Made by a program: the position numbers and the translations under genes. The notes beneath the pieces were generated by a model. It saw only the letters and a program-made list of their open reading frames with translations. It was not told where the DNA came from and ran no database searches. From IMG/VR virus record IMGVR_UViG_3300025889_000073, positions 107,729-171,728 of that record: a DNA stretch of 64,000 nucleotides. One strand, written 5' to 3'. Positions 48,092 to 55,637 of the stretch are shown here, in pieces; the first letter of the stretch is position 1, and each line of letters opens with the position of its first letter. Source of the stretch: a virus.

Positions 48092-48120
48092 TTGACATTC
48101 CATACTTAATACAATATAAT
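48092..48120 (+). promoter_or_regulatory. consensus sigma70 promoter for the winged-HTH gene
   Basis: TTGACA-17 nt-TATAAT. The -35 sits inside an imperfect inverted repeat (TGTATAAGTAT / ATACTTAATACA). Confidence 0.85.
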
Positions 48121-48126
48121 CAACGA

Positions 48127-48172
48127 ATTGCAGGGACGGGCCGCCTCTGTAATATTTTCCCAAGTGCGGCCC
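48127..48172 (+). ncRNA. putative H-type pseudoknot 5' leader RNA
   Basis: S1: ATTGCAGGG(48127-35) pairs with CTCTGTAAT(48145-53). S2: GGGCCGC(48138-44) pairs with GCGGCCC(48166-72). Confidence 0.6.
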
Positions 48173-48194
48173 ATTTTCTATAAGGAAATTTGTA

Positions 48195-48467
48195 ATGTCT
48201 GTTAAAGCTAAAGTTCTAGCGTATCTTTCGAAAGATTCGGAGTATAATACTCTAACCGCAAATAAAATGCGTTCCGTTTTCGGCGCAAAAAACCCCTCGG
48301 CCGTCATTGACGAGCTGCGTAAAGAGGGTCATGCTATTTACTTGAATAGCCGTACCAATGCAAGTGGCGAGAAAGTTTCTTTCTACCGTCTTGGTACTCC
48401 AACCAAGCGTATGATTGCTGCTGGTATCGCAGCCCTGCGTAATTCAGGTGTTCGTGCTTTTGCCTAA
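48195..48467 (+). CDS. small winged-HTH nucleic-acid-binding protein
   Basis: KVLAYL...LTA..M...FG..NPSAVI.ELRKEGHAIY...YRLG pattern; own promoter, SD (TAAGGA) and terminator. Confidence 0.75.
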   Translation: MSVKAKVLAYLSKDSEYNTLTANKMRSVFGAKNPSAVIDELRKEGHAIYLNSRTNASGEKVSFYRLGTPTKRMIAAGIAALRNSGVRAFA

Positions 48468-48485
48468 ATAATCTAAAAGCCGTTT

Positions 48486-48523
48486 AAGAGAGAGGATATA
48501 TAATTATGTCCTCTCTCTTTTTT
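48486..48523 (+). terminator. Rho-independent terminator
   Basis: AAGAGAGAGGATATA / TATGTCCTCTCTCTT followed by TTTT. Confidence 0.85.
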
Positions 48524-48537
48524 ACTATGGATTAATT

Positions 48538-49356
48538 ATGGAAATACAAATCAAAGTCGATGAACTGAAAAAAAGTAAAGTTTTTATTGCCACCCCTATG
48601 TACGGCGGCATGGCCAATGGCCTCTATATTAAATCGTGTTTAGACCTACAAAACACTCTCAACCGTTATGGTGTTGAAAGTAAATTCTCCTTCTTGTTCA
48701 ATGAGTCACTAATCACAAGGGCTCGAAATTATCTTGTTGATGAGTTCCTTAGGACAGAAGGTTATACACATTTATTGTTTATCGATTCTGATATTCATTT
48801 TTCTCCACAAGACATTTTGGCACTACTTGCCTTAGATAAGGATGTTATTGGTGGACCTTATCCTAAAAAAGCTATCAATTGGAAAAATGTTGCTGAAGCA
48901 TTAAGGAAAAATCCTGATATGGAACCAGGCGAATTAGAACAATTGGTAGGAGAATATGTTTTCAATGTGGTCAGAGGTACTAAACAATTTTCTGTTACTG
49001 AACCGTTAGAAGTTATGGAAATTGGAACAGGTTTCATGTTAGTAAAACGTGAAGTGTTTAATAAGATGGCAGAAGCCTATCCCATGATTCACTATAAACC
49101 AGACCACCAAGGTCAGGCCAATTTTGACGGGTCACGTTACATTCATGCTTACTTTGATACTGTGATTGATTCTAAAGATTCTATTACAGGCGGCGGTTCT
49201 GACCGTTATCTGAGTGAAGATTATATGTTCTGCCAGATGTGGAGAAAAATTGGTGGTAAAGTTTGGCTATGTCCTTGGATGAAAACACAACACGTTGGTA
49301 CCTATGCTTTTACAGGTAATATGCCAGCGGTAGCTAATTTTACAGGTAAACTGTAA
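48538..49356 (+). CDS. GT-A-fold (GT2-like) glycosyltransferase-like protein
   Basis: IATPMYGG, ESLITRARN, LFIDSDI (DxD), GTGFML and LSEDYMFC..W. Confidence 0.75.
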   Translation: MEIQIKVDELKKSKVFIATPMYGGMANGLYIKSCLDLQNTLNRYGVESKFSFLFNESLITRARNYLVDEFLRTEGYTHLLFIDSDIHFSPQDILALLALDKDVIGGPYPKKAINWKNVAEALRKNPDMEPGELEQLVGEYVFNVVRGTKQFSVTEPLEVMEIGTGFMLVKREVFNKMAEAYPMIHYKPDHQGQANFDGSRYIHAYFDTVIDSKDSITGGGSDRYLSEDYMFCQMWRKIGGKVWLCPWMKTQHVGTYAFTGNMPAVANFTGKL

Positions 49357-49448
49357 ATAAACAGAGGGTAAAACCTCTGCAAAATCTTGGTAAAACAAGT
49401 GCATTTGGTAAAACAAATGTTAAACATAAGACAATAAAGGGGTAAAAC
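49339..49448 (+). repeat. array of G-GTAAA(A)-C motifs; four lie in hairpin loops and the fifth abuts the start codon
   Basis: TTTACAG-GTAAA-CTGTAAA; CAGAGG-GTAAAA-CCTCTG; CTTG-GTAAAA-CAAG; CATTTG-GTAAAA-CAAATG; then GGTAAAAC-T-ATG. Confidence 0.85.
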
Positions 49449-49449
49449 T

Positions 49450-50583
49450 ATGTCAATTTTAAAAATTAAACCGTATGGCGAATTTACGGAAGAACATCGC
49501 CAAATCGTGGAAAATAATTTGAGAAAAGATGTATTCCACGAATTCTATACGAATTCATCTTACAAATCATTGAAATTTAAAGGAACACACTTAGTTCCTG
49601 AATCTGTAATCAATCGTGATGGTGAAGGCAGTTCACAATCAACCAGATATAATGGATTAAATCCGAAATATTCTGAATTGAAATCTGGTATTTTAGAGAC
49701 CGGTTGGCAGTTGTATCAACGTCCAATTTCTCTTAAAGAAACTAAAGATAAAAAGTATATTTTTCTGGATGGCCGAACAAAAGATAAAATTTTAACGGAA
49801 GTTAAATTTAAAAATCGGATTGTTAATATATACGAAATTGATGAATCTGAGGAAGAATATTTTAATGTAGCCTTGAACAATGGTGTGGATAACCCACCTG
49901 CTGGTTTAATGTTACAGGAAGATGTTGTCGGGATTATGTTGCGCCAAATTAAAAATGGTTACTTACAAAATGACCCCGATGAAATTTTAAAAGCAGTTAA
50001 TCTAGCCTGTGGTAATGGTAAATTTTCATCAAACAAACGTGATGAAATCCGTTGGCAAGTTTATCATCGTGAACTGAATATTCAAAACACAAACTTACTT
50101 CCAAAGTCCTGGGCTAATGCTGGTGAAGTTAATTTGTGGTTACAAACACACAATTATATAAACAACAACAAAGTTTTGTATTTGCCATATTCTTCAACAT
50201 CTGCACCGAAAGCACTTGTAGCAGCTGCAAGCAAATCGCAACAAAATCCAAATAAAGAAATTAGAGTGGTTATTTACATACGAAATTTCTTAGGTGTTGA
50301 TTTGGAAAAATTCTATATCAAATCAATGTTGAAATTTAAAAATGAATGGTATAGGTTCCTTAATGAGTTTGGCCAAGCATATTTCGATAACAAGAATCCT
50401 TTAGACACAAAGGTTAAGTTATATGGTTGTGTTCCATCCAATATTGAAGGTTTATGTGAAGATATGAATAACATGATTATCTTTAACAAAAACGACCAAA
50501 AGATTGATGAGAATTATATTCTTTCAAATTCTTTAGACATTGATTCGTTTGTGGAAGAAGATGATGAGGAAGAAATGGTATGA
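49450..50583 (+). CDS. hypothetical protein with a ParB/Srx-like N-terminal domain
   Basis: QSTR...YSELKSGILETGW....PI......KYIFLDGRTK..IL resembles the ParB-N pattern Q.R...L..SI...G...PI.....GxxR. Acidic C-terminal tail. Confidence 0.55.
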   Translation: MSILKIKPYGEFTEEHRQIVENNLRKDVFHEFYTNSSYKSLKFKGTHLVPESVINRDGEGSSQSTRYNGLNPKYSELKSGILETGWQLYQRPISLKETKDKKYIFLDGRTKDKILTEVKFKNRIVNIYEIDESEEEYFNVALNNGVDNPPAGLMLQEDVVGIMLRQIKNGYLQNDPDEILKAVNLACGNGKFSSNKRDEIRWQVYHRELNIQNTNLLPKSWANAGEVNLWLQTHNYINNNKVLYLPYSSTSAPKALVAAASKSQQNPNKEIRVVIYIRNFLGVDLEKFYIKSMLKFKNEWYRFLNEFGQAYFDNKNPLDTKVKLYGCVPSNIEGLCEDMNNMIIFNKNDQKIDENYILSNSLDIDSFVEEDDEEEMV

Positions 50584-50858
50584 TTGATTACAAATATAGT
50601 GAGGATAGAATCTTAAAAGAATTACAGTCTTATGTAGATTCTACTTACAACGAACACTACTCACAAAATAAATTTCAGGCAACTGAGTTTATTATGGATA
50701 GTGGCCACGGCGAAGGGTTCTGTATTGGTAATATTATGAAATATGCTCAACGATACGGTAAAAAAGATGGATACAATAGAAAAGACTTGCTTAAAGTTTT
50801 ACACTATGGTATAATGGCTCTTCACAATCATGATTTGAAAAAGGATAATAGATTATGA
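50580..50858 (+). CDS. DUF3310-like protein
   Basis: HY.....Q..EFI......GFCIGNIMKY..RYGKK.G..KDLLK..HY. Confidence 0.8.
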   Translation: MIDYKYSEDRILKELQSYVDSTYNEHYSQNKFQATEFIMDSGHGEGFCIGNIMKYAQRYGKKDGYNRKDLLKVLHYGIMALHNHDLKKDNRL

Positions 50859-51535
50859 AATTTTCGAGTGAAACAATTGGTATTTTAAAAAACTTTGGTA
50901 ATATTAACCAAGGCATCATGTTTAAAAAAGGTAAGACACTTAAAACTGTTTCGCCACATAAAAACATTTTGACTCATGCTGAGATTCAGGAAGATATTCC
51001 TACTGACTTTGGTGTTTATGATTTGCCACATTTCCTCTCGACCATGTCGGCATTTAAAGATGTTCCAAGTCTGGAGTTTGAAGAAAAACAAATGTTTATT
51101 GTTGGACCACAAGGTGACAAATTCACCTATCGTTTTTGTGAACCAACAATGATTGTTCTTCCGCCTGAAAAAGAATTGGTCATGCCTGACCCAGAAGTTA
51201 AGTTTGAAATTTCTAATGATAACTTTGACAAATTCATGCGAGCTGCAAACATTCTATCGTCACCACAAATTGCAATCAAATCGGATGGCCAAAATGTGAA
51301 TATTGTTTCTTTGGATATGCAAAACGACTCTGCACATACCTATTCACTTAATGTTTCTGAAGGTAATGGTGATACCTATCAGATTGTATTTAAAACTGAA
51401 AACTTCAGTAAAATACTTTCTGGTACTTATGAATTTTCTTATTCGTCTAAGGGTGTTTCACACTTTAAAAATAAGAATCTTAATTTGAAATACTGGGTGA
51501 CGAGTGAAGCTGGTTCCAGTTTCACCAAAGGTTAA
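50855..51535 (+). CDS. gp45: sliding clamp gp45
   Basis: ILKNF.NIN.GI, FGVYDL..FL and FK.EN...GTY; precedes gp44. Confidence 0.92.
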   Translation: MKFSSETIGILKNFGNINQGIMFKKGKTLKTVSPHKNILTHAEIQEDIPTDFGVYDLPHFLSTMSAFKDVPSLEFEEKQMFIVGPQGDKFTYRFCEPTMIVLPPEKELVMPDPEVKFEISNDNFDKFMRAANILSSPQIAIKSDGQNVNIVSLDMQNDSAHTYSLNVSEGNGDTYQIVFKTENFSKILSGTYEFSYSSKGVSHFKNKNLNLKYWVTSEAGSSFTKG

Positions 51536-51564
51536 TTTTATTATGTTTTTTGTGAGGAGTTCCT

Positions 51565-52497
51565 ATGGAACATTTGTTATGGACAGAGAAGTATCGGCCT
51601 CAGACGGTGGAAGATTGTATTCTTCCTGACCGTCTGAAAAAGCCGTTTCAAGAATATGTAGACCAAAAAAATATACCAAACTTTTTATTGAGTGGCGGCG
51701 CCGGTGTCGGTAAGACAACCGTTGCTAAAGCAATGTGTGAAGAAATTGGTTGCGATTATATGGTCATCAATGGTTCTGATGAATCTGGCATTGATACTTT
51801 TAGGATGAAGATTAAGAACTATGCTTCTTCAATGTCTCTTGCTGGTGGCCGAAAAGTCATCATCATTGACGAAGCTGATTATCTAAACCCAAATTCAACA
51901 CAACCAGCTTTGCGTAATGCGATTGAAGAATTCGCAAGCAATTGTTCGTTCATTTTCACCTGTAATTACAAGAATCGAATCATTGAACCACTCCACTCTC
52001 GGTGTGCAGTAATTGATTTTGGTTTGAGAAATGGTGAAAAACAAAAGATGGCCTCTGCGTTTTTCAAGCGTATTCAGTCTATTTTGCAAAGTGAAAAAAT
52101 CGACTTTGAAGACAAGGTTCTTGCTGAGTTGGTGAAGAAACACTTTCCAGATTTTCGGAGAGTGATTAATGAGTTACAGCGTTACAGTCAATTTGGTTCT
52201 ATTGATACTGGTATCTTGGCACAAATCGCCGATATATCACTATCTGAAATTATAAAGAGCCTCAAAGAGAAAGATTTCGGTTCTGTTCGTAAATGGGTTG
52301 CTACACATGAAGTAGACCCAAATACACTTTACCGTAAACTTTATGATGCAATGTATGATTCGCTGAAACCCCAATCTATCCCTCAAGCGGTTGTTATTCT
52401 TGCTGACTACCAGTATAAGACGGCTTTTGTTGCTGACCAAGAAATTAATACAGTTGCTTGTTTGACTGAGTTGATGGTGAATTGTGAATTTGTATGA
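51565..52497 (+). CDS. gp44: clamp loader ATPase subunit gp44
   Basis: WTEKYRP, GGAGVGKTT, IIDEAD, SRC and FPDFRR. Confidence 0.97.
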   Translation: MEHLLWTEKYRPQTVEDCILPDRLKKPFQEYVDQKNIPNFLLSGGAGVGKTTVAKAMCEEIGCDYMVINGSDESGIDTFRMKIKNYASSMSLAGGRKVIIIDEADYLNPNSTQPALRNAIEEFASNCSFIFTCNYKNRIIEPLHSRCAVIDFGLRNGEKQKMASAFFKRIQSILQSEKIDFEDKVLAELVKKHFPDFRRVINELQRYSQFGSIDTGILAQIADISLSEIIKSLKEKDFGSVRKWVATHEVDPNTLYRKLYDAMYDSLKPQSIPQAVVILADYQYKTAFVADQEINTVACLTELMVNCEFV

Positions 52498-52787
52498 TAG
52501 ATTCGATTTTCAGACCTACTATAGAATGGATTAAAGATGACTGGCGTAGTAATTCGTTTAGATTTATTATTGAAGTGTTTGCTTGGGCTATTAGCATTGG
52601 CTGTAGTATTACCATGGCTCTCACCGTTCCTAACCCACCCCTTATTGTCTTATACCCTATTTGGATTTTGGGTTGTAGTATGTACGCTTGGGCTGCCTAT
52701 ACTCGCCGCAGTTTTGGTATGCTCGCTAATTATCTACTACTTGTCACCATTGACACCACAGGACTAATTAGGATGTTGTTGCAATGA
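52494..52787 (+). CDS. small membrane protein (about 3 TM helices) between the clamp-loader genes
   Basis: Three hydrophobic stretches; ATGA overlaps at both ends. Confidence 0.6.
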   Translation: MIDSIFRPTIEWIKDDWRSNSFRFIIEVFAWAISIGCSITMALTVPNPPLIVLYPIWILGCSMYAWAAYTRRSFGMLANYLLLVTIDTTGLIRMLLQ

Positions 52788-53173
52788 GTGGACCTTTTGA
52801 TTATGTAAATTCAATACTACAAAATAAGAAACAGTTAATTGTTGATGAGTTGACTGAACGTGAATATATACCATTTTTAACAAATAGGAGTTTGTCGTAC
52901 CATAAAGATTGTGTTTTATTTGCAAATGAGGTCAATATGAGACACCATTTGGATAAAAAGTTACAATTTGATTTTCTTATAAATATAATCAGGGCTCAGA
53001 AAAGACCCTTTGCGAAGTGGATAAAAGCTGAAAAGAGTGAAGATTTAGAATGTATAAAGACTGTCTTTAAATTCTCAGATTCTAAAGCAAAAGAAGCTTT
53101 ACGTCTACTAAACGAGAAACAAATCCAACAATTAAAAGAACAAACCGATACGGGTGGATTAAGGAAAAAATAA
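52784..53173 (+). CDS. gp62: clamp loader small subunit gp62
   Basis: PFDYVNSI, Y.PFL.NRSLSY..D, LQFDFLIN..R..KR.F.KW and C-terminal GG. Confidence 0.92.
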   Translation: MSGPFDYVNSILQNKKQLIVDELTEREYIPFLTNRSLSYHKDCVLFANEVNMRHHLDKKLQFDFLINIIRAQKRPFAKWIKAEKSEDLECIKTVFKFSDSKAKEALRLLNEKQIQQLKEQTDTGGLRKK

Positions 53174-53174
53174 T

Positions 53175-53576
53175 ATGGTGGACTTAAACAATTTTATTGA
53201 AGTGGGTCTAAAGGAACAAGATGATTTTTTAAAAATTCGTGAAACATTAACTAGAATAGGAGTATCTTCCAGGCGAGAAAAGGTTTTGTATCAATCTTGC
53301 CACATTTTACATAAACAAGGAAGATACTATATCGTACACTTTAAAGAATTATTTGGTTTAGATGGTAAACCTTCAAACTTATCCGAAAATGACATACAAA
53401 GACGTAATGCAATTGCAAAATTACTTGAAGATTGGGGATTACTTAAAATTCTAAACCATGAAAGAATTGGTAATAATGTTGCCCCATTACACCAAGTTAA
53501 AATTATTTCTTTTAAAGAAAAAGAGGAATGGGAATTGGTTACTAAATACAATATTGGTAAAAAGTCTAACGAATAA
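53175..53576 (+). CDS. regA: translational repressor RegA
   Basis: DDFLKIRETLTRIG and LYQSCHILHKQGRYYIVHFKELF.LDG. Confidence 0.97.
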   Translation: MVDLNNFIEVGLKEQDDFLKIRETLTRIGVSSRREKVLYQSCHILHKQGRYYIVHFKELFGLDGKPSNLSENDIQRRNAIAKLLEDWGLLKILNHERIGNNVAPLHQVKIISFKEKEEWELVTKYNIGKKSNE

Positions 53577-53589
53577 CCTTTTGGAGTTT

Positions 53590-53778
53590 ATGATGAAAAA
53601 AGTGAAAGACAAATTGATAAAACTGAAAAACAAATATAGTAATGAAATTGTGTTTACCCGAAACTACAATGAGGTAGTTAAGGAAAACAATATGGAATTT
53701 ATCCGTGTATATAATGAAAACAATCCTCAAAGAACCTTTCTTGTTAACCGGGATGCTTTCACTATTGTGGATAAATAA
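53590..53778 (+). CDS. small hypothetical protein
   Basis: GGAG SD followed by ATG at 53590; fills the regA-hsp20 gap. Confidence 0.55.
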   Translation: MMKKVKDKLIKLKNKYSNEIVFTRNYNEVVKENNMEFIRVYNENNPQRTFLVNRDAFTIVDK

Positions 53779-53781
53779 AAT

Positions 53782-53828
53782 TGTGGTGCCTTATGGGCCA
53801 CATATTTTGTAACCTCGCTTAAAAGGAG
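53782..53828 (+). promoter_or_regulatory. ROSE-like RNA thermometer leader of hsp20
   Basis: 5' hairpin TGTGG..CCACA, then CTCGCT-TAAA-AGGAG, which pairs the SD with a bulged G. Confidence 0.55.
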
Positions 53829-53835
53829 AAAAACT

Positions 53836-54318
53836 ATGGTAACACGACTTTCTTTTGGTCCTTTACATCACTCAACACTTGGATTCGACCGATTCTTTGA
53901 TGAAGTTGAAAAGATGTTGAATGTTGATGTGACAAAGACCGTTTCAAACTTCCCACCACACAATATTATTAAACTTGATGAGTCTCGTTATGTCGTTGAG
54001 TTGGCCGTTGCTGGCTTCTCAAAGGATGAAATTGATATTTCTGTTGATGAAAACGTATTGACCGTGAAAGGTGTGAAGGACGAAAAAGAAACATCTGTCG
54101 AATACCTACATAAAGGTATTGGAACACGTTCATTCACAAAAACTCTTACAATTGCTGACACAATCGAAGTAAAAGGTGCAGAGTTTAAGGATGGTATTCT
54201 ACGCATTGGTTTGGAGAATATTATTCCTGAACACAAGAAACCTCGCAAGATTGAAATTGGAAACAATTTGAAAGAGTTCACACCTCAATTGCTGCAGGAA
54301 GAAAAACTCGCAGCATAA
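53836..54318 (+). CDS. hsp20: small heat-shock protein Hsp20 (IbpA-like)
   Basis: GFDRFF, FPPHNI, LAVAGF, YLHKGI..RSF, DGIL.I.L and IPEHKKPRKIEI. Confidence 0.95.
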   Translation: MVTRLSFGPLHHSTLGFDRFFDEVEKMLNVDVTKTVSNFPPHNIIKLDESRYVVELAVAGFSKDEIDISVDENVLTVKGVKDEKETSVEYLHKGIGTRSFTKTLTIADTIEVKGAEFKDGILRIGLENIIPEHKKPRKIEIGNNLKEFTPQLLQEEKLAA

Positions 54319-54322
54319 ACCT

Positions 54323-54345
54323 TGGGGCTTCGGCCCCATTTTATT
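54323..54345 (+). terminator. C(UUCG)G tetraloop hairpin/terminator after hsp20
   Basis: TGGGGC-TTCG-GCCCCA followed by TTTTATT. Confidence 0.8.
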
Positions 54346-54792
54346 ATGATGAAAATTAAATTTCAAAAAGCACATATGGATGTGGCAGAAGTTTATTCAA
54401 AATTATCTTCTGCTGAAAGACTTCAAGTTGGATGTGTCATTGTAAAAGATAATACCATCATTGGTATTGGTTACAATGGTATGCCTTCTGGATGGTCCAA
54501 TGTCTGTGAGATGGAGGTTCCAGATACAACTTCAGGTTTTAATGGAACTTCCACAAAGTCTGTAACAAGACCAGAAGTACTTCATGCAGAATCAAATGCC
54601 ATTGCTAAGGTGGCCAGGTCGACAAACTCAACAGATGGTGCTAGTATGTTTATTACTCATGCTCCTTGTATAGATTGCGCTAAAATGATTTACCAGGCAG
54701 GAATATCTTCCGTGTATTACAGAGAATCATATCGGAATGATGACGGTTTAAATTTTTTAAAGCGATGTGACGTAAGTGTATTAAAACTATAA
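54346..54792 (+). CDS. dCMP deaminase
   Basis: VGCVIV, GYNG.P, HAESNAI and PCIDC zinc motifs. Confidence 0.92.
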   Translation: MMKIKFQKAHMDVAEVYSKLSSAERLQVGCVIVKDNTIIGIGYNGMPSGWSNVCEMEVPDTTSGFNGTSTKSVTRPEVLHAESNAIAKVARSTNSTDGASMFITHAPCIDCAKMIYQAGISSVYYRESYRNDDGLNFLKRCDVSVLKL

Positions 54793-54804
54793 AGGAACAA
54801 TTTT

Positions 54805-55266
54805 ATGTTAGTCTTACCTGATGAATTGGTAGTAAAGCCAATAGGTTTTACTTGTTCAACATTTGATTTACTTCATGCTGGACACATTCTAATGTTAGCT
54901 GAAGCAAAAAAACTCTGTGATTATTTAATTGTAGGACTTCAAAGTGACCCATCGATTGACAGGCCTAATGAAAAAAATAAGCCTGTTCAATCAATCGTTG
55001 AGAGATATGTACAGTTAGAGGCAGTAAAATTTGTAGATGAAATTATCGTTTACAATACAGAGAAAGACTTAGAAGATTTGTTGATGTTTTTACCAATTAA
55101 TGTTCGTATTATTGGTGAAGAATATGAAGGCAAAGAATTCACAGGAAAAGAAATTTGTGAAGACAGGGGTATAAAGATTTTTTACAACTCCCGTAAACAC
55201 CGTTTCAGTTCTTCTGAGCTGCGCCAACGTACATATCATTCTGAATTGCTAAAGGAGAAATTCTAA
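54805..55266 (+). CDS. cytidylyltransferase (TagD-like)
   Basis: FDLLHAGH (HxGH) and SSSELR motifs. Confidence 0.88.
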   Translation: MLVLPDELVVKPIGFTCSTFDLLHAGHILMLAEAKKLCDYLIVGLQSDPSIDRPNEKNKPVQSIVERYVQLEAVKFVDEIIVYNTEKDLEDLLMFLPINVRIIGEEYEGKEFTGKEICEDRGIKIFYNSRKHRFSSSELRQRTYHSELLKEKF

Positions 55267-55637
55267 TGTGTAAAGTTTTTACCGATGTGCAGATGTTTAT
55301 GTCTGCTGCAGGTCAATCTATCAACAAAAATAATCCAGAACAATCTGATTTATATTCTAAACTTATCACAGAAGAATATTCTGAATTCTGTGAAGCATTT
55401 CAACAAGATGATGAGGTTGAAATGGCAGATGCTTGTTTTGATATGATTTGGGTTATTGTTGGTTTTATGGCATCAAAAGGTTGGGATTGTAATGCCATTT
55501 GGGATGAAGGTACAAAGTCTAACCTTGCCAAAATTGACAAAGAAACCGGTAAGGTTTTAAAACGTGAAGACGGCAAAGTGATGAAACCAGAAGGTTGGCA
55601 ACCACCAAACTTTGGTAAATTTGTTGAAAAGATTTGA
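55266..55637 (+). CDS. MazG-like/all-alpha NTP pyrophosphohydrolase
   Basis: LI.EE..E......D.VE.ADA..D, SNLAK and REDGKVMKP.GW.PP. Confidence 0.85.
   Translation: MCKVFTDVQMFMSAAGQSINKNNPEQSDLYSKLITEEYSEFCEAFQQDDEVEMADACFDMIWVIVGFMASKGWDCNAIWDEGTKSNLAKIDKETGKVLKREDGKVMKPEGWQPPNFGKFVEKI

Follow-up and report, generated by a model that had tools for sequence, protein, structure and literature searches.

A covariation-supported pseudoknot at the predicted 5' end of the mRNA for a putative winged-helix protein in T4-like phages

What kind of element occupies the predicted 5' end of the transcript of a small basic protein gene in a T4-like phage, and what does it do there? The locus belongs to a complete 171.7-kb record of an uncultured aquatic T4-like phage in IMG/VR (IMGVR_UViG_3300025889_000073; genome GC ~35%), from which we analysed a stretch of 64,000 nucleotides, positions 107,729 to 171,728 of the record, hereafter called the window; coordinates below are those of the window. 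The genome encodes cobT-like, cobS, gp45, gp44, regA and gp32 proteins, and no psbA was found in it. Leader pseudoknots that serve a single phage gene are textbook knowledge from T4 gene 32, which is autoregulated through a leader pseudoknot and whose leader also stabilises its mRNA, yet very few families of this kind are known.

Layout of the cassette and its product

The locus comprises the following features:

48092..48120, + strand: sigma-70-type early promoter, TTGACA-17-TATAAT (12/12), with the start predicted at ~48127
48127..48135, + strand: 5' arm of stem S1, AUUGCAGGG, starting at the predicted +1
48136..48137, + strand: loop L1, AC, crossing the deep groove of S2
48138..48144, + strand: 5' arm of stem S2, GGGCCGC, adjoining the S1 3' arm with 0 nt between
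48145..48153, + strand: 3' arm of S1, CUCUGUAAU
48154..48165, + strand: loop L3, AUUUUCCCAAGU, 12 nt, U-rich, crossing the shallow groove of S1
48166..48172, + strand: 3' arm of S2, GCGGCCC
48173..48194, + strand: U-rich unstructured spacer with the Shine-Dalgarno sequence (SD; AAGGA, 48182-86), up to the start codon
48195..48467, + strand: gene for a 90-aa basic protein, predicted winged helix of the HTH_39 family with an extra C-terminal helix; ATG at 48195
48486..48525, + strand: intrinsic terminator with a 15-bp stem, a 4-nt loop and a T run (hairpin itself 48486-48519)

The promoter, with TTGACA at 48092-97, a 17-nt spacer and TATAAT at 48115-20, is one of three perfect matches to TTGACA-17-TATAAT in the 64-kb window, where 0.14 would be expected. 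S1 begins 6 nt after the -10 hexamer and has nine pairs, including two G-U pairs, whereas S2 has seven perfect, G/C-rich pairs that would stack directly on S1; together with the loops they make up the first 46 bases of the predicted mRNA, with a GC content of 0.54. The sequence-only reading of this DNA had proposed just such a self-contained unit of promoter, leader, winged-HTH gene and terminator, and all four were located where it had placed them, down to the perfect promoter with its start near 48127, the 9-bp S1 with two G-U pairs at the predicted +1, the perfect complementarity of GGGCCGC to 48166-72 and the H-type geometry with loops of 2 and 12 nt and no base between the stems. Only the gap from the pseudoknot to the SD had to be corrected, from 8 to 9 nt.

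The layout is shared by relatives from IMG/VR, whose leaders were collected as the DNA upstream of metagenomic homologues of the 90-aa protein. A promoter matching at least 10 of the 12 consensus positions is retained in 62 of 68 distinct relatives, the -10 hexamer lying mostly 8-9 nt from S1, and S1 starts mostly at +1 to +3, ~0-3 nt from the predicted start in nearly all of them; taking the start as predicted from the -10 hexamer, pairing begins no more than ~4 nt from the 5' end. On the other side of the gene, a hairpin of 13-15 bp followed by a T run (-11 to -23 kcal/mol) stands ~50 nt past the stop codon in all 97 relatives with enough downstream sequence. The next gene of the phage begins at 48538, only 13 nt beyond the terminator, and has no promoter of its own. 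The pseudoknot thus belongs to a conserved monocistronic cassette of promoter, RNA, gene and terminator, which almost every contig has between cobS and the same GT-like gene, with the same co-directional genes always downstream. The mRNA of this gene is singled out within the phage, because the leaders behind 22 other near-consensus promoters are mostly short or unstructured, and for this reason we rejected the idea that 5' structure is a general trait of its early mRNAs.

The product of the gene is most probably a winged helix, as the sequence-only reading had suggested, and belongs to the HTH_39 family. The protein of the window itself scores 16 bits against PF14090 (HTH_39), below the cut-off of 21.3, and 58 of the 68 aligned family members match this profile, with a best E value of 1.5e-10. 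In the AlphaFold (AF2) model (pLDDT 83.7) the secondary structure runs H-E-H-H-E-E-H, a winged helix extended by one more helix at the C terminus. VIA-align ranked winged-helix regulators highest, with Z up to 8.4, and the model resembles Stf76, NiaR, NolR and transcription factors of the MarR/ArsR type; similar Z values were also reached with the RNA- or Z-DNA-binding winged helices SelB and Z-alpha. Foldseek found nothing in the PDB at E <= 0.001. The net charge counted from the translation is ~+9. The protein falls into 562 clusters and has hundreds of metagenomic relatives, which supplied ~70-90 distinct leaders; the metagenomes concerned are freshwater, estuarine and marine.

Comparative evidence for the fold

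Taken by itself, the window sequence makes only a suggestive case for a pseudoknot, because comparable 9+7 patterns arise by chance: a naive scan of the whole genome returned 13 H-type patterns of 9+7 bp, all the others being AU/GU-rich. The nested fold of the leader is unremarkable (z = -1.3), and GGGCCGC matches only at the two arms of S2, yet 9 of 100 shuffles give at least two matches.

The case is carried instead by the relatives, whose leaders were aligned in two ways. When 52 distinct leaders were aligned with MAFFT, blind to structure, 94.6% of the pair cells hold standard pairs and 14 of the 16 pairs have changed on both sides, values that were attained in none of 500 shuffles; sliding the partners by 1-3 columns reduced pairing to 34-46%. 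The second alignment, of 69 distinct leaders, was built with a covariance model that knew S2 only, S1 being aligned by sequence alone, and here S1 is 95.6% paired with compensatory change in 7 of 9 pairs, and S2 93.5% paired with compensatory change in 5 of 7 (both stems, ~95% and 12 of 16; slid controls, 35-48%). The exchanges replace whole arms, as in S2 (GGGCCGC/GCGGCCC, GAAUCGC/GCGAUUC, GGUCUC/GAGACC and GAUUCAC/GUGAAUC) and in S1 (GCAGGG/CUCUGU, UGAGAG/CUCUCA, GAGUG/CACUC, UAAGGU/ACCUUA and CCGGAAG/CUUCCG), and, mapped on the protein tree, every variable pair went through 6-22 changes of state. The geometry is kept as well, with a zero-nt junction between the stems in nearly all leaders, an S2 of 6-8 bp, an S1 of 5-11 bp, and loops that are always long enough to span S2 (L1, 1-6 nt) and S1 (L3, 9-18 nt). 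We consider this comparative evidence decisive for the fold, and by geometry and covariation the leader is a classical H-type pseudoknot, with the proviso that stems forming simultaneously and stems forming in alternation would give the same signal.

The mismatches also tell which strand folds. G-U pairs outnumber A-C mismatches by 52 to 3 and therefore it is the sense-strand RNA that folds, not duplex DNA or the antisense strand. An inverted-repeat operator in double-stranded DNA, bound by a dimeric regulator, would suit the place of the S1 repeat just past a promoter, where repressors commonly bind, and 9+7 patterns do arise by chance in this genome; the strand-asymmetric wobble pattern would not arise from a DNA palindrome, however, the two repeats are interleaved, the S2 half-sites lie a variable 24-40 nt apart, and the extensive compensatory change speaks against both a DNA site and coincidence. 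We therefore rejected the DNA palindrome, and regard the two explanations together as the least credible of those considered here.

Four pairs at the helical junction stand out from this variation. A8-U28 and G9-C27 in S1 are each kept in 67 of the 69 leaders, and C22-G61 and C24-G59 in S2 in 68 and 69, respectively, while their neighbours covary freely. These fixed pairs suggest sequence-specific recognition, which we would place at the junction because the variable loops cannot supply it. Since ~70-90 different related phages keep the pseudoknot by compensatory mutations, it is to be regarded as a real RNA control element, and we hold it to be very probably a genuine cis-acting RNA that acts on its own transcript. 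The general claim of the sequence-only reading, a cis-regulatory leader RNA at the predicted +1, is thereby borne out by the covariation of both stems, not least by that of S2, on which it had made itself depend, and by the retention of promoter and terminator among relatives; its description of the element as GC-rich holds for this genome and fails for the relatives, in which the GC content of the leader is 0.27-0.43.

Variation, distribution and identity of the element

Outside the stems little is conserved. L1 is variable and A/U-rich, L3 is 50% U with no conserved sequence and in one leader (L018) has taken up a mini-hairpin, and the spacer that follows the pseudoknot is 65% U and 25% A. 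The distance from the end of the pseudoknot to the AUG ranges from 16 to 30 nt (mode 20), and the spacing of the pseudoknot to the promoter is tighter than that to the SD.

Two covariance models match a single copy in the 171.7-kb genome, by which a regulon of further copies was rejected. Scanning IMG/VR with a pattern of the S1/S2 junction returned 118 matches, of which 76 have the full architecture and the remaining 42 are unrelated hairpins; all 76 precede this gene, including two cut by the end of the contig. The pseudoknot is retained down to ~50% protein identity (leaders L089-L112, and L169-L242 with 81-aa forms of the protein). At about the same distance (~50-55% protein identity) a sister clade, L123-L130, has no pseudoknot and carries a 5-bp hairpin with a GNRA tetraloop exactly at +1. 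The pseudoknot is likewise absent in the pelagiphage HTVC008M, the Methylophilales phage Melnitz and the Stenotrophomonas phage DLP_6, whose proteins are 39-45% identical; simple 5' hairpins of other kinds are present in Melnitz, DLP_6 and the leader L252, and in HTVC008M the homologue is coupled to a phage S21 gene and lacks a separate leader. What these leaders share most widely is thus stable structure right at the 5' end, the pseudoknot being the elaborate form found in one large clade.

The element was not recognised as a member of a described family. The comparison with Rfam that had been proposed along with the sequence-only reading was carried out, and no family of Rfam 15 reached its gathering score. 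The DUF2815 RNA (RF03084) aligned with the window leader end to end (AGGG..ACG, hairpin, SD, AUG) at 25.4 bits, against a gathering score of 41.2, and the gene downstream is HTH_39 here and not DUF2815, an Enc34-type SSB. Twenty relatives gave nothing with this family at E <= 1 and searches with two 121-nt leaders nothing at E <= 10, so that with none of 22 relatives matching, the alignment was rejected as chance. We found no paper describing the element, which may be contained in a 2023 catalogue of ~8,500 anonymous candidate RNAs from IMG/VR (PMC10690425), and Rfam holds no model of this abundant, covariation-supported leader family.

Small size, H-type topology and a position in the 5' leader are traits that the element shares with the compact pseudoknot riboswitches for small molecules (preQ1, SAM-II/V, fluoride and guanidine-III). 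These have conserved unpaired nucleotides in the ligand pocket, which are absent here, L1 and L3 varying in sequence and length and L3 even accepting a hairpin; there is no Rfam match, the gene downstream is regulator-like and neither metabolic nor concerned with transport, and no alternative pairing with the ribosome binding site (RBS) is conserved. Variable loops and a non-metabolic gene make a riboswitch very improbable in our view. Of the three functions that the sequence-only reading had left side by side, the riboswitch is thus given up, which leaves the autoregulatory operator and the 5' stabiliser under consideration. Two ways of masking the RBS were discarded as well. The nested minimum free energy fold of the window pairs the 5' arm of S1 with the region from SD to AUG, and a switch of this kind was rejected because the pairing is not conserved among 50 leaders (mean z = +0.32); an anti-SD in L3 (UUUCC in the window, CUCU in the leader L001) is, by eye, absent from most relatives.

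Possible functions of the leader pseudoknot

By analogy with the leader of T4 gene 32, our preferred reading, to which we assign a probability of roughly one in three, is an autogenous translational operator with a second role in protecting the 5' end. Transcription from the consensus early promoter would yield an mRNA that opens with the compact H-type pseudoknot (9-bp S1, 2-nt L1, 7-bp S2 and 12-nt L3), followed by a U-rich single-stranded tract and the RBS of the strongly basic 90-aa winged-helix protein. Once accumulated, this protein would bind the near-invariant helical junction of its own leader, the putative target consisting of two pairs at the top of S1 (A-U and G-C) and of the S2 end formed by C-G/G-C/C-G, and would then keep the 30S subunit from loading on the U-rich/SD tract that begins within 4-21 nt. 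The folded end may in addition shield the message from 5'-end-dependent decay, because it leaves at most ~2 bases unpaired. Binding of the protein to its leader, if it occurs, would mean that both the RNA-protein recognition pair and the autogenous circuit are new.

Several observations are in keeping with such an operator. Both stems covary in the structure-blind and in the half-blind alignment, with 6-22 changes per pair, and the fixed junction pairs lie amid covarying neighbours; the lack of a spacer between the stems and the lengths of the loops fit the sterics of an H-type fold, and the wobble pattern points to folding of the sense RNA. The genome holds one copy of the element, which is strictly associated with one gene (76/76 in IMG/VR), whose predicted product has a basic nucleic-acid-binding fold, and the other early leaders of the phage are short and unstructured. 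The 30S footprint on mRNA is established, and by this measure the pseudoknot, ending 16-30 nt before the AUG, reaches the 5' edge of the region that the subunit would cover. Autogenous operators built on leader structures are well known, from T4 gp32, gp43 and RegA to E. coli S15 and S4. On the other hand, the protein looks like an ordinary winged helix that binds double-stranded DNA, its best fold matches being transcription factors, and RNA binding by winged helices is rare in bacteria and phages. Plain hairpins replace the pseudoknot in the sister clade, Melnitz, DLP_6 and L252, and the HTVC008M homologue is leaderless; the spacing is tighter to the promoter than to the SD, and no alternative pairing with the translation-initiation region is conserved.

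The comparison with the gene 32 leaders of T4, T2 and T6 runs both ways. In both cases an H-type pseudoknot stands at the 5' end of the leader in a T4-type phage, an unstructured U/A-rich tract (here 65% U and 25% A) and the RBS follow it, and the product encoded downstream binds nucleic acid, which is predicted from the fold in our case. The product here is an HTH_39 winged helix and not an SSB, however, sequence similarity between the leaders is absent, the spacer of only 4-21 nt is too short for cooperative spreading, and the phage has its own gene 32 elsewhere, away from the pseudoknot cassette (G000 67045-67923), with a different leader. What is new is a T4-type phage leader pseudoknot before a new kind of gene, one for a predicted HTH_39 winged helix, a fold that is not normally considered to read RNA.

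A more tentative explanation, though a serious one, dispenses with a protein partner and takes the element for a pure 5' stabiliser, in which the paired first nucleotides keep off RppH, RNase E with its 5'-end sensing, or a 5'-3' exonuclease, and together with the strong 3' terminator hairpin give a long-lived, insulated, monocistronic early mRNA. According to the rule of Emory, Bouvet and Belasco, a 5'-terminal stem-loop stabilises only if no more than 4 bases are unpaired, and S1 lies ~0-3 nt from the predicted start in nearly all relatives, much as the stem-loops of the E. coli ompA type lie no more than a few bases from the 5' terminus. As in those stabilisers, pairing seems to matter more than sequence and the fold is interchangeable with simple hairpins in relatives: unrelated ones, including those with GNRA tetraloops, occupy the same site in sister clades and homologues, so that the kind of structure changes and its position does not. 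Stable structure at the 5' end as the widest conserved theme would fit a stabiliser better, as would the unconstrained loops, the 65% U spacer, a typical RNase E target in need of protection, and the 13-15-bp terminator hairpin of 97/97 relatives. The reading is weakened by the retention of S2 and of the zero-nt junction through many independent compensatory changes, because a hairpin would suffice, and by the four junction pairs fixed in sequence. The described 5' stabilisers are plain hairpins, we know of no pseudoknot described as acting solely in this way in bacteria, and the other early mRNAs of the phage are mostly without 5' structure. Antitermination, which we think unlikely, would make the cassette a counterpart of lambda PL-nutL-N-tL1 or HK022 put: RNA polymerase would be modified by the nascent pseudoknot, with or without the protein bound to it, and would then pass the strong terminator into a promoter-poor replication block of GT-like, ParB-like, gp45, gp44, gp62 and regA genes. 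The resemblance to the lambda and HK022 arrangements lies in the order of early promoter, RNA element at +1, small basic gene, strong conserved terminator and, 13 nt on, a gene with no promoter; on the + strand no sigma-70 match of at least 11/12 was found from 48525 to 55634, and the next + strand terminator is at 54323. The cassette is always upstream of the same co-directional genes, the homologues of HTVC008M and Melnitz being located upstream of the gp45-gp44 module, and the 5-bp GNRA hairpin at the same site in the sister clade is boxB-like. AsiA and MotA had no match in the phage, in searches made without a positive control, and if antitermination were true it would provide the 'delayed-early/middle' control that is missing from T4-like phages without MotA/AsiA. 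More broadly, an RNA acting on RNA polymerase would bear on how MotA-less T4-like phages time their replication genes. The proposal is drawn from the architecture of the cassette, however, and the genes downstream could also be transcribed from weaker or non-sigma-70 promoters. There is no boxA/boxB and no two-hairpin put structure, and neither in sequence nor in structure does the leader match nut, put or EAR; it was matched by no Rfam family, in a library that may or may not include nut/put models. Lambda N is an arginine-rich peptide and not a winged helix, and the hairpin behind the Melnitz gene lacks a T run.

Slightly less likely again, in our estimate, is a docking site for some other trans-acting factor, be it ribosomal protein S1 or the 30S subunit at a standby site or translational enhancer, RegA or gp32. 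A U-rich tract next to structure is the classical S1/standby design and is what the leader has beside its pseudoknot; the genome has both regA and gene 32, and the operator of T4 gene 32 likewise combines a pseudoknot with an A/U-rich tract. A general factor should have several targets, however, whereas this element is single-copy and serves one gene, and nothing similar to the pseudoknot is seen in the gene 32 leader of this phage.

Late transcription was also considered as a source of expression for the genes downstream of the cassette and was rejected, since the canonical T4 late promoter TATAAATA is scarce in the window, with 2 matches to TATAAATA against ~8 expected. Whatever the function of its RNA, the unit is, with a 46-nt leader, a 90-aa gene and a strong terminator, a compact natural expression cassette.

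Boundaries of the winged-helix cassette

In several relatives that carry a homologous winged-helix gene (records L242, L064, L072 and L028), a hairpin spans the promoter region, as exemplified by AAGACCC-TTGACCAA-GGGTCTT; its 3' arm leads into a T run, after which comes TATAAT. Because this hairpin spans the promoter, the terminator of the upstream gene, cobS, overlaps the cassette -35/-10 in these relatives, and this arrangement is predicted to insulate the cassette on both sides. No promoter-spanning hairpin of this type is present in the window.

The following features lie at the 3' end of the cassette and beyond it:

48486-48519 (equivalent site in L001-L250), terminator hairpin, compared across relatives
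48527-48535, three-codon mini-ORF (ATG GAT TAA) that follows the terminator T run and precedes the ATG (48538) of the GT-like gene
48538-54340, block of genes in one orientation, about 5.8 kb long (GT-like, ParB-like, DUF3310, gp45, gp44 ... regA)

Relatives share a conserved apex sequence in the terminator hairpin (GAUAUAUA..(A/G)GUAUC), whereas the lower stem of the hairpin shows covariation. The terminator 5' arm consists only of purines (GA-rich), as does the 5' arm of the first pseudoknot stem at the predicted +1 (48127-48135). A TATAAT is found at 48499-48504, within the terminator loop region of the window, with no -35 16-18 nt upstream of it. Immediately 3' of the terminator T run, many relatives carry TTTTATGG.

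The replication-gene block is bounded by two + strand terminators, at 48486 and 54323. No sigma-70 promoter match of at least 11/12 was detected within 48538-54340, the top matches being 10/12, at 50821 and 52960.

Leaders of the sister clade and of gene 32

Two further leaders were inspected:

Exactly at +1 of the homologous gene in L123-L130 (IMG/VR; sister clade of the winged-helix protein), 5-bp GNRA-tetraloop hairpin
66990-67044 of the whole phage genome (= L132 1310-1362), gene 32 leader

The sister-clade hairpin, whose variants include UACUC-GCAA-GAGUA, CUCUC-GAAA-GAGA and CCC-GAAA-GGG, has a covarying stem and a conserved loop class, and is similar to boxB-type hairpins. A pseudoknot of the winged-helix-leader type is absent from the gene 32 leader (66990-67044). 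In that leader, 2.5 direct tandem copies of AUACUCCGUUU lie immediately 5' of the SD.

The locus of Pelagibacter phage HTVC008M

Two regions of the HTVC008M record (L086) contain potential RNA structures:

2080-2125, phage S21 gene leader, GCAGGAGCGUUACCUGCCAUCCGCUCC, directly upstream of the SD
2675-2760, three consecutive hairpins with CUCGUAAAU or CUCUUUAAAAA in their loops, downstream of the winged-helix homologue

The S21 leader can fold into either of two hairpins that exclude each other, GCAGG/CCUGC or GGAGCG/CGCUCC, and it may serve as a switch for the gene pair that encodes phage S21 and the winged-helix protein. The three downstream hairpins are reminiscent of the GUAAAA-loop hairpins found upstream of the ParB-like gene at 49357-49450 of the window.
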